Shown: positions 41,657 through 43,019 of the stretch, piece by piece | Numbering within the stretch: position 1 is the stretch's first letter | Layout: each line of letters begins with the position of its first letter | NCBI GenBank assembly: GCA_965223705.1 | Contig: OZ245015.1 | Coordinates: 128,001-192,000, forward strand | Reading direction: 5' to 3' | DNA: 64,000 nt | From: Myxococcota bacterium | Lineage (GTDB): Bacteria > Myxococcota_A > UBA9160 > UBA6930 | Position numbers and translations under genes: made by a program | The notes under the pieces: model-generated | Told to the model about the DNA's origin: nothing | The model's input: only the letters and a program-made list of their open reading frames with translations | Database searches by the model: none

Positions 41657-41847
41657 CCGTTCACCTTCCTAAGCATGGAAGCCTGGCCGCTGCTCCGAGC
41701 GACCGACTTCCGCCTAACGGAGTTGCGGCTCAGTGGGCCCGCCGACCTGAAGGCAGGATTCCGCCGATACCGCTGGTAAGGCCTCAAGACTAACGAACTA
41801 GAACCGAGCTAAGGCGGATCCACTGCAGCCGCTCTTATGATGCGATC

Positions 41848-42047
41848 CGTGATGAAATGAAGCGGCCGATGAGCACAAGCCACGTGCCCACCGGCCTTCA
41901 TAGGGAGCGGTAGGCCGAAAGCCAAGAGGTCCCTTGCGAGACCGTTAACAAGCTCGGGTCACCGTTCCCGTTGCCGCAGCGAAGCTCGAACGATCGCTTG
42001 GGCCGCCCGGAGGCGAGCCCGTATTTGAGAGCCCGAGTTCGTTGTAC
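41848..42047 (+). ncRNA. Predicted bridge RNA (copy 2); ends approximate
   Basis: Target guide TAACAAGC 41946-41953; donor guides ACGATCGCT 41990-41998 and TGAGAGC 42026-42032. Confidence 0.8.
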
Positions 42048-42060
42048 CGGGAAGTTTATC

Positions 42061-42984
42061 ATGGCCCCCTGCATTGGAATCGATGTCTCGAAGCACACCC
42101 TCGACTGGAGCTCCGGCTCCAAAGGTCGCATCCAGAGCACCCGCAACGTCCCCCGATCAATCGCAGCCCTCGTTCGCCGACTCTCTGCACTCCGTCCAAA
42201 ACGAATCGTGGTGGAGTCCACCGGCGGCTACGAACGGCAGCTCGTTCTCAAGCTCGCTGAGGCGAAGCTACCCGTCGTTGTGGTGAACCCGCGCCGAGTG
42301 CGGAGTTTTGGAGAGGCGGTGGGATGTCTCGCCAAGACCGATCCCATCGACGCTCGCCTCTTGTCCCAGTTCGGCGAGAAGGTAGAACCGCCGCTTCGTC
42401 CGATCGTCGAGGGTAGAGAGCGTCTCCTGGCAGACCTTGTCGCGCGTCGCCGGCAGTTGGTCTCCATGGTCGTCGCCGAGAAGAACCGACGCGAGTGTGC
42501 ACCCGCCGCGGTTCGCCGATCGATCACCGCCGTGCTGAAGATGCTCGAAGGCCAACTACGGTCCATCGACGGGCAGATGGAAAAGATCCTCGACGAAGAC
42601 GCAGAACGAGCCGAGCTGTCGGGGCTCCTGCAAAGCGTCCCCGGTGTAGGACCGGGTGTCGCACGCACGCTGCTCATCGACCTACCCGAGTTGGGTCACC
42701 TGGGGCGTCGAGAGATCGCGTCTCTCGTCGGGGTCGCTCCCTTCGCACGAGATAGCGGAATGTTACGGGGGTCACGACGAATCCGCGGAGGTCGTGCCTC
42801 GGTACGCACTGCGTTGTATCTCGCGGCGATGACCGCTTCCCGCTTCAACCCGACTCTTCGAGGTGTCTACGAAAGACTTCGCGCATCGGGGAAGCCGCCG
42901 AAGCTCGCCTTCGTCGCTATCGCTCGAAAACTCCTCGTCATCCTCAACGCCATCGCTCGCGACCGCGTCGCCTGGCAGCCCTAA
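42061..42984 (+). CDS. IS110-family DEDD recombinase (307 aa)
   Basis: [21 protein letters not shown] (DEDD); SVPGVG; RDSG putative catalytic Ser; GKPPK...ARKL. Confidence 0.95.
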
Positions 42985-43019
42985 GCGTTGACTTCCAACA
43001 CGATCGCTTGTTAGGCCGC

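Follow-up and report, generated by a model that had tools for sequence, protein, structure and literature searches.

The 64,000-nucleotide stretch of Myxococcota DNA analysed here (hereafter the window) carries an integron whose cassette array is interrupted by three copies of one insertion sequence (IS) of the IS110 family. Two of the copies are identical over 1175 bp and the third measures 1167 bp; a preliminary description of this stretch, made from the sequence alone, had delimited all three exactly as we do. Counted over the whole genome (4.56 Mb in two contigs), the element is present in these three copies only, plus two small fragments. The features of the locus, with the internal parts given for copy 2, are as follows (here and throughout, a slash within a sequence marks the point of insertion):

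48261–49265, forward strand: gene for an integron integrase (TIGR02249 with 448.7 bits, the cut-off being 265; Pfam PF00589 and PF13495)
36333–47665, reverse strand: cassette array with 14 attC sites, its cassettes read on the reverse strand
37867–39033, forward strand: copy 1, with a frameshifted transposase gene and with its ends and guide-RNA region intact
41834–43008, forward strand: copy 2, intact, 1175 bp including one CT core at the right end, identical to copy 3
44301–45475, forward strand: copy 3, intact, 100% identical to copy 2, in a different attC and with a different right flank
42061–42984, forward strand: transposase gene (307 aa; PF01548 with 64.2 bits, PF02371 with 57.2 bits, NF033542 with 191.8 bits against a cut-off of 140)
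42985–43008, forward strand: right end, 24 bp, containing TTGACT (42988–42993) and the CT core
41712–41833, forward strand: larger part of the attC split by copy 2, R' to L'' in cassette orientation
43009–43016, forward strand: the other 8 bp of that attC, TGTTAGGC, which on the cassette strand is the R'' box GCCTAAC plus A
47636–47652, forward strand: free perfect target, GCAGCCGCT/TGTTAGGC, in the attC nearest the integrase

The host structure is an ordinary chromosomal integron. Its attC sites are 14 repeats of ~130 bp extending from ~47.66 kb down to 36.3 kb and bounded by RYYYAAC and GTTRRRY, each starting with RYYYAAC-GGAGTTGCGGCTCAG and ending with CTGCAGCCGCT-[T/G]GTTRRRY; the small open reading frames (ORFs) between them lie on the reverse strand, and 13 of the 16 that were scanned have no Pfam match. 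In all three copies of the element the left junction reads AGCCGCT/CTTATGATG (AGCCGCT/CTTATG in copy 2) and the right junction ACGATCGCT/TGTTAG, which bears out the shared insertion point AGCCGCT/TGTTAG, with its CT core, of the preliminary description: the same base has been entered in three different attC sites, and the right flanks of the copies diverge past 6–7 nt. Seen from the cassette strand the insertion point is GCCTAAC-A/AGCGGC, one base beyond the R'' core site and between the R'' and L'' boxes, that is, at the ORF-proximal end of attC, and the transposase gene runs opposite to the cassettes. Structure prediction folds the reconstituted forward-strand attC into a long hairpin, in which we read the two Ts flanking the insertion point as lying in the spacer that separates the R from the L boxes and stays unpaired; since this strand is the one that folds for the integrase, the element might also recognize extruded or single-stranded attC. 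Because insertion cuts the attC hairpin in two, neighbouring cassettes should lose their mobility, and such elements therefore probably freeze parts of cassette arrays. The choice of sites within the array is not uniform: three of the four that read AGCCGCT/TGTTAG are occupied, against none of the ten that differ (Fisher p = 0.011); of these ten, seven carry G at +1, two carry G at +5 and the last has a different left half. Capture of the transposase gene as a cassette was considered and rejected, because joining the flanks restores a single intact attC and no attC belongs to the element itself.

The element consists of a 227-bp left end, a gene of 307 codons and a 24-bp right end. Copy 1 differs from the other two solely by an 8-bp deletion (element positions 710–717), which lies within the gene and because of which its frame matches the protein only at residues 1–172. 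By eye, a candidate inverted repeat pairs GCGATC(C)GTG (positions 9–18 of the left end) with CACGATCGC at the right end (9 of 10 positions, one indel); relatives keep only its CGTG/CACG part, and the 25 longest inverted pairs without gaps do not include it. The transposase has the DEDD_Tnp_IS110 and Transposase_20 domains, and residues D8, E52, D94 and D97 are invariant in an alignment with IS621-, ISEc32- and IS4321-family proteins. Its S231, in the motif RDSG, is aligned to the ESG serine of the IS621-family protein, and we take this serine of the Tnp domain to be the catalytic one. Identity amounts to 39.8% over 99% of the protein with an ISEc32-family member and 32.3% with an IS621-family member, as opposed to 21% with IS4321 of plasmid R751, an IS1111 member according to the title of Partridge & Hall 2003; a plasmid search with the IS4321 protein returned matches dominated by IS4321 and IS5075. 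A long upstream non-coding end and a left guide that precedes the right one are IS110-type traits, as set out in Durrant 2024 (PMC11208160) and Siddiquee 2024 (PMC11187229), and the element has 227 non-coding bp upstream of the gene and 24 bp downstream.

Phylogeny agrees with this assignment. In a tree of 54 rows, comprising all attC-type elements, six references and one row per target class of 136, the eight elements inserted at TGTTAG form, together with locus L089, a single clade (SH-aLRT 99), sister to ISEc32-type elements and elements of the repetitive extragenic palindromic (REP) type, with IS621 further out and IS4321 on a very long branch. A tree of 42 rows with five further genomes yields a clade of 14 rows (SH-aLRT 95) that includes 11 attC-type elements, three of which lie within attC arrays. 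These results support membership of the IS110 group and not of IS1111, the IS1111 side being represented by one long-branched reference, IS4321. The IS110-group recombinase that the preliminary description had proposed is thus upheld by domains, DEDD residues, the two non-coding ends, trees and identities alike; its suggested placement of the protein against both IS110 and IS1111-attC members was followed in part, the protein grouping with IS110-type sequences and IS4321 standing on the IS1111 side in place of ISKpn4, ISPst6 and ISPa21.

The 227-bp left end is predicted to encode a guide RNA with the following parts:

41857–41901, forward strand: 5' hairpin of the predicted bridge RNA, from the minimum-energy fold and kept in relatives
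41903–41968, forward strand: target-binding module (stem, internal loop, apical hairpin), all 16 pairs of its helices 1 and 2 showing compensatory changes
41917–41927, forward strand: position of the left target guide, on the 5' side of the target loop, GAAAGCCAAGA
41944–41953, forward strand: right target guide, GUUAACAAGC, pairing GCT/TGTTAG through eight Watson–Crick pairs and one G–U
41976–42044, forward strand: donor-binding module, from the fold and the covariance model
41990–41998, forward strand: left donor guide, ACGAUCGCU, equal to the last 9 nt of the element (ACGATCGCT)
42022–42032, forward strand: right donor guide, UAU-UU-GAGAGC, discontiguous
41836–41841, forward strand: TATGAT, −10 half of a junction promoter, which pairs up with the TTGACT of the right end

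The minimum-energy fold of the left end contains a 5' hairpin and two modules of stem and internal loop (z = −3.3, with 1 of 200 shuffles folding as well). This is the architecture that had been drawn by eye, and the three motifs then singled out fall in its loops at the positions given for them: the 9-mer ACGATCGCT (41990–41998), equal to the right end; TGAGAGC (42026–42032), which complements the circle junction with one wobble; and, in the first loop, the 8-mer TAACAAGC (41946–41953), the complement of GCT/TGTTA in the attC target, which UUAACAAGC (41945–41953) extends to GCT/TGTTAG. Such matches are rare by chance: when the 227-nt left end was shuffled 200,000 times, 163 of the shuffled sequences contained the 9-mer, 463 the 8-mer and 5,723 the 7-mer (Watson–Crick or with that one wobble). 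In the right donor guide, GAGAGC pairs with GCT/CTT (one G–T) and UAU with the ATG that follows, leaving two nucleotides between them; these vary freely among relatives (UU, UC, AC, CC) and therefore fit a bulge. Three further pairs predicted in the donor loop between the left and right donor guides were rejected as a stem and assigned to the guides, since they are paired in only 55.5% of cells (helix 6). As judged from these matches, three of the four predicted guides are clear and had been read correctly in the preliminary description; the left target guide, on which that description was silent, is not clear. Joining of the two ends would produce TTGACT–17 nt–TATGAT, which agrees with the consensus at 11 of 12 positions by our count, and this junction promoter or a near variant is present in all six clade elements with both ends examined (with 18 nt in L006); scanning of the integrated copy gave no sigma-70-like site. 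The window has no match to Rfam 15 at gathering scores, a search for which the presence of a bridge-RNA family in that database was left unchecked. As to the IS621-type layout with a CT core that had been recognized in the preliminary description, the order of modules and guides, the core and the junction promoter hold both in the window and in relatives, the exception being the poor left target guide of the window's own element.

Read on the reverse strand, which is that of the cassettes, the 5' hairpin (41864–41896) resembles a terminator, with a 14-pair stem and a T-rich tail behind it, and could stop cassette transcripts that enter the element.

Relatives are abundant. The protein search yielded at least 7,853 matches among 8,000 scored candidates, and the best 120 of these 7,853 consist of the window protein itself (P0001) and 119 proteins at 71–90% identity, mostly on contigs of 1–3 kb, 112 of them exactly 307 aa long. 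A first set of relatives with DNA comprised five metagenome loci at 73–76% identity, two at 56–59% and one locus of a metagenome-assembled genome at 61%; eight of this set sit at GC[N]GCT/TGTTAGGC or end there. A second set came from the same phylum and comprised five genome loci with 52–72% identity, from a search in which 6 of 401 genomes matched at E ≤ 1e-90, G000 included; all five genomes have an integron integrase, on other contigs. According to a flank-motif search, L173 and L176 of these lie among more attC-like ends spaced by 0.6–1.2 kb; a crude attC finder detected nothing in L180 and L181, where the flank-motif search did find motifs.

A covariance model of the two loop modules, built from nine loci (146 positions, 37 pairs), has matches immediately ahead of the transposase gene in 76 of the 80 loci taken from genomes and in 74 of the 80 taken from metagenomes, at ~50% protein identity, and in none of three plasmid loci. 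In an alignment of 74 rows, compensatory changes occur in 28 of the 37 pairs, and the share of paired cells is 90%, as opposed to 31–51% with slid partners, figures that are favoured by the fitting of the alignment to the model itself. The element ends were located through the donor guides in 153 model matches, so that the target guides alone provide an independent test. The right target guide predicts the right flank: across 124 of the 153 matches with a right flank and an anchored right guide, collapsed to 29 classes, the mean agreement is 4.24 of 5 positions against 1.75 when shuffled, a value reached in none of 10,000 shuffles. The left target guide likewise follows the left flank (4.73 of 7 against 3.19, again with none of 10,000 shuffles reaching it) across 88 of the 153 with a trusted left end, in 55 classes whose columns retain some register errors. 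Fold and covariation across homologues, which the preliminary description had named among its checks, are thus positive on all three counts of model, compensatory changes and guide–flank agreement.

Individual relatives illustrate the pattern. L176 combines the right guide UUAACCAGC with the site GCT/GGTTAT, L177 the right guide CUAACAAGC with GCT/TGTTGG (through a U–G pair), and L175 the right guide GUGUACCAGC (also given as GUACCAGC) with GCT/GGTACC. On the left side, the guide AGCGCCU of L173 agrees with its flank AGCGCCT at seven of seven positions, and CAAGCGCU of L089, whose right flank is cut off, agrees with CAAGCGCT at eight of eight; in L086 and L087, which occupy the same target as the window's element, the left guide agrees at only 5 of 7 positions. 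For L174 (from G063), the right end could not be placed. Changes in the left donor guide are mirrored in the right end (ACGATCG vs ACGGTTG vs ACAGTCG), ACGGUUGC accompanying the right end ACGGTTGCT in relatives.

Both target guides are changed in L089, for which they predict the palindrome CAAGCG-CT-TGCGCG, and in L175, which sits at CAGAGG-CT-GGTACC; these two look like natural cases of retargeting away from attC. At ~50% identity, L008–L085 and L093–L165 belong to a large family from alphaproteobacteria and soil, whose donor is ACAGTCG-CT-TGTAAC and which often has many copies per genome. The targets in this wider family are REP-like (among them palindromes such as CCTCATC-CT-GAGGAGC, others ending in CT-CTCCCC or CT-CACCC).

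Identical insertion points, the anatomy of the element, matching guides, a conserved fold and, among relatives, guides that covary with the flanks are all observed, and we consider it very likely that the window's element is an IS110-group IS guided by its own 5'-encoded bridge RNA to the R''/L'' junction of attC. It appears to be a genuine element that was probably active recently, and we infer that it produces an RNA which the recombinase binds, that it forms a circle and that the copy is active in spite of its poor left guide. In IS110-type life cycles, as outlined in Hiraizumi 2026 (PMC13626964), the circle switches on both the RNA and the gene. In the cycle that we propose, right-end TTGACT and left-end TATGAT would similarly be joined in the excised circle into a promoter for RNA and gene, and a DEDD/serine recombinase would be guided by a bridge RNA of ~200 nt from the 5' end of the element. 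The donor loop of this RNA would hold the joined ends ACGATCG-CT-CTTATG, and the target loop would hold attC, mainly via the long right guide pairing GCT/TGTTAG; recombination at the CT core would then insert the element where the L'' box adjoins the R'' box, a single base away from the R'' core site.

Several points weigh against this reading. The left target guide, GAAAGCCAAGA, equals the target AGCCGCT at only four of seven positions (AGCC), neither core base is paired, and five adjacent bases depart from the clade consensus (GCCUG vs CAAGA). This contrasts with IS621, for which core pairing on both strands and a perfect match at the nine non-core target positions are strongly preferred, according to Durrant 2024 (PMC11208160). 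The perfect target at 47636–47652 carries no element. Among public runs, no RNA dataset with the element is listed, which carries no information on its expression. The contigs of four sequencing runs, probably from the source sample, contain neither a right end–left end (RE–LE) circle junction nor an empty site, and the joints that do occur in them are accounted for by attC repeats. Finally, the donor-guide match in relatives is circular, the boundaries having been placed with those same guides.

The same run contigs offer two further observations. When those of runs X1–X3 were compared with window positions 41400–43400, one of them ran past TGTTAG into sequence absent from the assembled genome. 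Another contig from the sample leaves the element at 42007 and enters a variant donor-loop hairpin. In run X1, the contig of the element has a word depth of 34.6, compared with 4.9–6.7 for the flanking contigs, which hints only weakly at extra copies, since the depth of a contig does not measure copy number. The sample may hold further copies or a related element.

The poor left guide raises the question of whether the element is decaying, its targeting having been disabled by mutation of that guide, in which case the copies would either date from shortly before the mutation or have been mobilized by the RNA of another element. We regard this as unlikely. In its favour, five adjacent bases depart from the clade consensus, IS621 tolerates few mismatches, and the same sample contains a variant element whose donor-loop hairpin differs (the loose end at 42007). 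Yet all three copies share the same left guide and two of them are identical over their entire length, and therefore the element multiplied with this guide; moreover, L086 and L087 also have imperfect left guides at the same target, and the depth contrast in X1, together with the one extra right flank absent from the assembly, adds a weak hint in the same direction. Either the 9-nt right guide compensates for the poor left guide, or the copies are the last jumps of a failing element. For IS621, longer right guides raised efficiency when the core consisted of dinucleotides other than CT (Durrant 2024, PMC11208160). A more far-reaching version, that the long right guide of this clade alone reads the near-universal R'' box (GCT/TGTTAG) and that the left guide is dispensable, is possible but doubtful. 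Were it true, the element would be a natural 'half-site' bridge recombinase with access to many unrelated attC sites, and would run counter to the rule of strict two-sided pairing established for IS621.

It is very improbable that the copies spread through homologous recombination or cassette duplication, the guide matches being only a record of where an ancestor landed. The attC sites are ~90% alike, because of which recombination between them is possible, one cassette is indeed duplicated in the array (39587–40260 vs 46437–47110), and the left target guide is poor; but the cassettes to the right of the three copies are unrelated past 6–7 nt, occupancy tracks single-base differences opposite the right guide, and related elements from other genomes and metagenomes are inserted at that same base in attC sites that are unrelated.

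Work by Tetu and Holmes in 2008 and by Post and Hall in 2009 reportedly describes an IS1111-attC group (ISKpn4, ISPst6, ISPa21, ISPa25) that is site-specific for one end of attC. That the window's element is an already described member of this group, and nothing new, is barely credible: it shares the niche and apparently the same attC end, and TAACAAG in its guide resembles TAACAAT in ISKpn4, but its long non-coding region is the upstream one (227 bp, against 24 bp downstream), its guides follow the IS110 order of left (bottom-strand match) then right (top-strand complement), and its protein, at 21% identity to IS4321 against 32–40% to members of the IS621- and ISEc32-families, lies far from IS4321 in the trees.

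With IS621 and further bridge-RNA elements of the IS110 group (PMC11208160, PMC13626964), the window's element shares a recombinase with DEDD and Tnp domains, the CT core, a guide RNA at the left end in the order 5' hairpin, target loop and donor loop, left guides that equal the top strand and right guides complementary to it, and, with IS621 itself, a discontiguous right donor guide and a promoter rebuilt across the RE–LE junction. It differs from IS621 in its protein (32% identity), in its target (integron attC instead of a REP element), in its right target guide, which spans 9 nt (6 + core + 1) compared with four non-core nucleotides in IS621, and, for the window's copy, in a left target guide without core pairing. 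Its nearest named relatives are those of the ISEc32-family (a RefSeq name; E. coli plasmids), in the sister group of the attC clade; they were compared here by protein and were not encountered in integrons in this analysis.

With the IS1111-attC group the element shares insertion into attC, RNA guidance and a TAACAA-type match to the R'' box. ISKpn4 and ISPst6 are guided by an RNA (seekRNA) encoded downstream of the gene, the ISKpn4 RNA mapping downstream of tnp, and an upstream position is an IS110-type trait (Siddiquee 2024, PMC11187229). The non-coding region of ISKpn4 contains TAACAAT, which matches the R'' box together with AA (Supplementary Table 1 of Siddiquee 2024, PMC11187229); this suggests that ISKpn4 and the window's element, with TAACAAG in its guide, read the same R'' box. 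Unlike the window's element, which has only 24 bp in the place where IS1111-attC members keep a long guide-RNA region, that group has its guide RNA downstream, the two target matches in the opposite order, apparently longer subterminal inverted repeats and a distant protein branch (21% identity, with IS4321 as stand-in). Group IIC-attC introns are another class of mobile elements that home to attC; they are retroelements with a reverse transcriptase, and nothing of that kind is found in the window's element.

A full-text literature search, with ISfinder outside its scope, found no IS110-group element that a guide RNA from its 5' end directs to attC: in Durrant 2024 (PMC11208160) attC appears only in a reference title, and in Siddiquee 2024 (PMC11187229) only with ISKpn4 and ISPst6. 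The mechanism and the attC niche are already known, whereas the lineage is new. Our results leave the known mechanism unchanged and concern a branch, the IS110 group, that was previously not known to aim at integrons. The suggestion that attC targeting was reached independently is supported by the position of the guide RNA and by the distance of the protein from the single IS1111-group reference; convergence with the IS1111-attC group is probable. Both RNA-guided branches of the IS110 family appear to have colonized cassette arrays with the guide RNA at opposite ends of the element, in our view a clear instance in which programming has converged on one safe, repeated target. For tool building, the clade offers natural examples of a long right target guide, single-base discrimination (T or G at +1) and possibly tolerance of a mismatched left guide.

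The window also contains remnants of such elements and other traces of array history. A relic of a related element lies at 35233–35330, past the last attC of the array, where the interior of an attC (..cgctggtaag) is joined to a copy of the 5' hairpin. The ribosome-binding site and ~55 bases from the start of the transposase gene (88% identical) follow directly, so that neither guide module is left. In the first cassette, 23 nt at 47683–47705 are identical to element positions 159–181 (the end of the left donor guide and the donor-loop hairpin), 30 bp from the free perfect target and with no further element sequence recognizable around them. The cassette duplicated in the array together with its attC (39587–40260 vs 46437–47110) is identical at 646 of 674 positions. 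Toxin–antitoxin-like pairs are common in chromosomal integrons, and the array includes two cassettes with two genes each on the reverse strand, one encoding DUF4160 and DUF2442 proteins (43020–43494) and the other a ParE toxin and an upstream partner of 60 codons (43672–44141).

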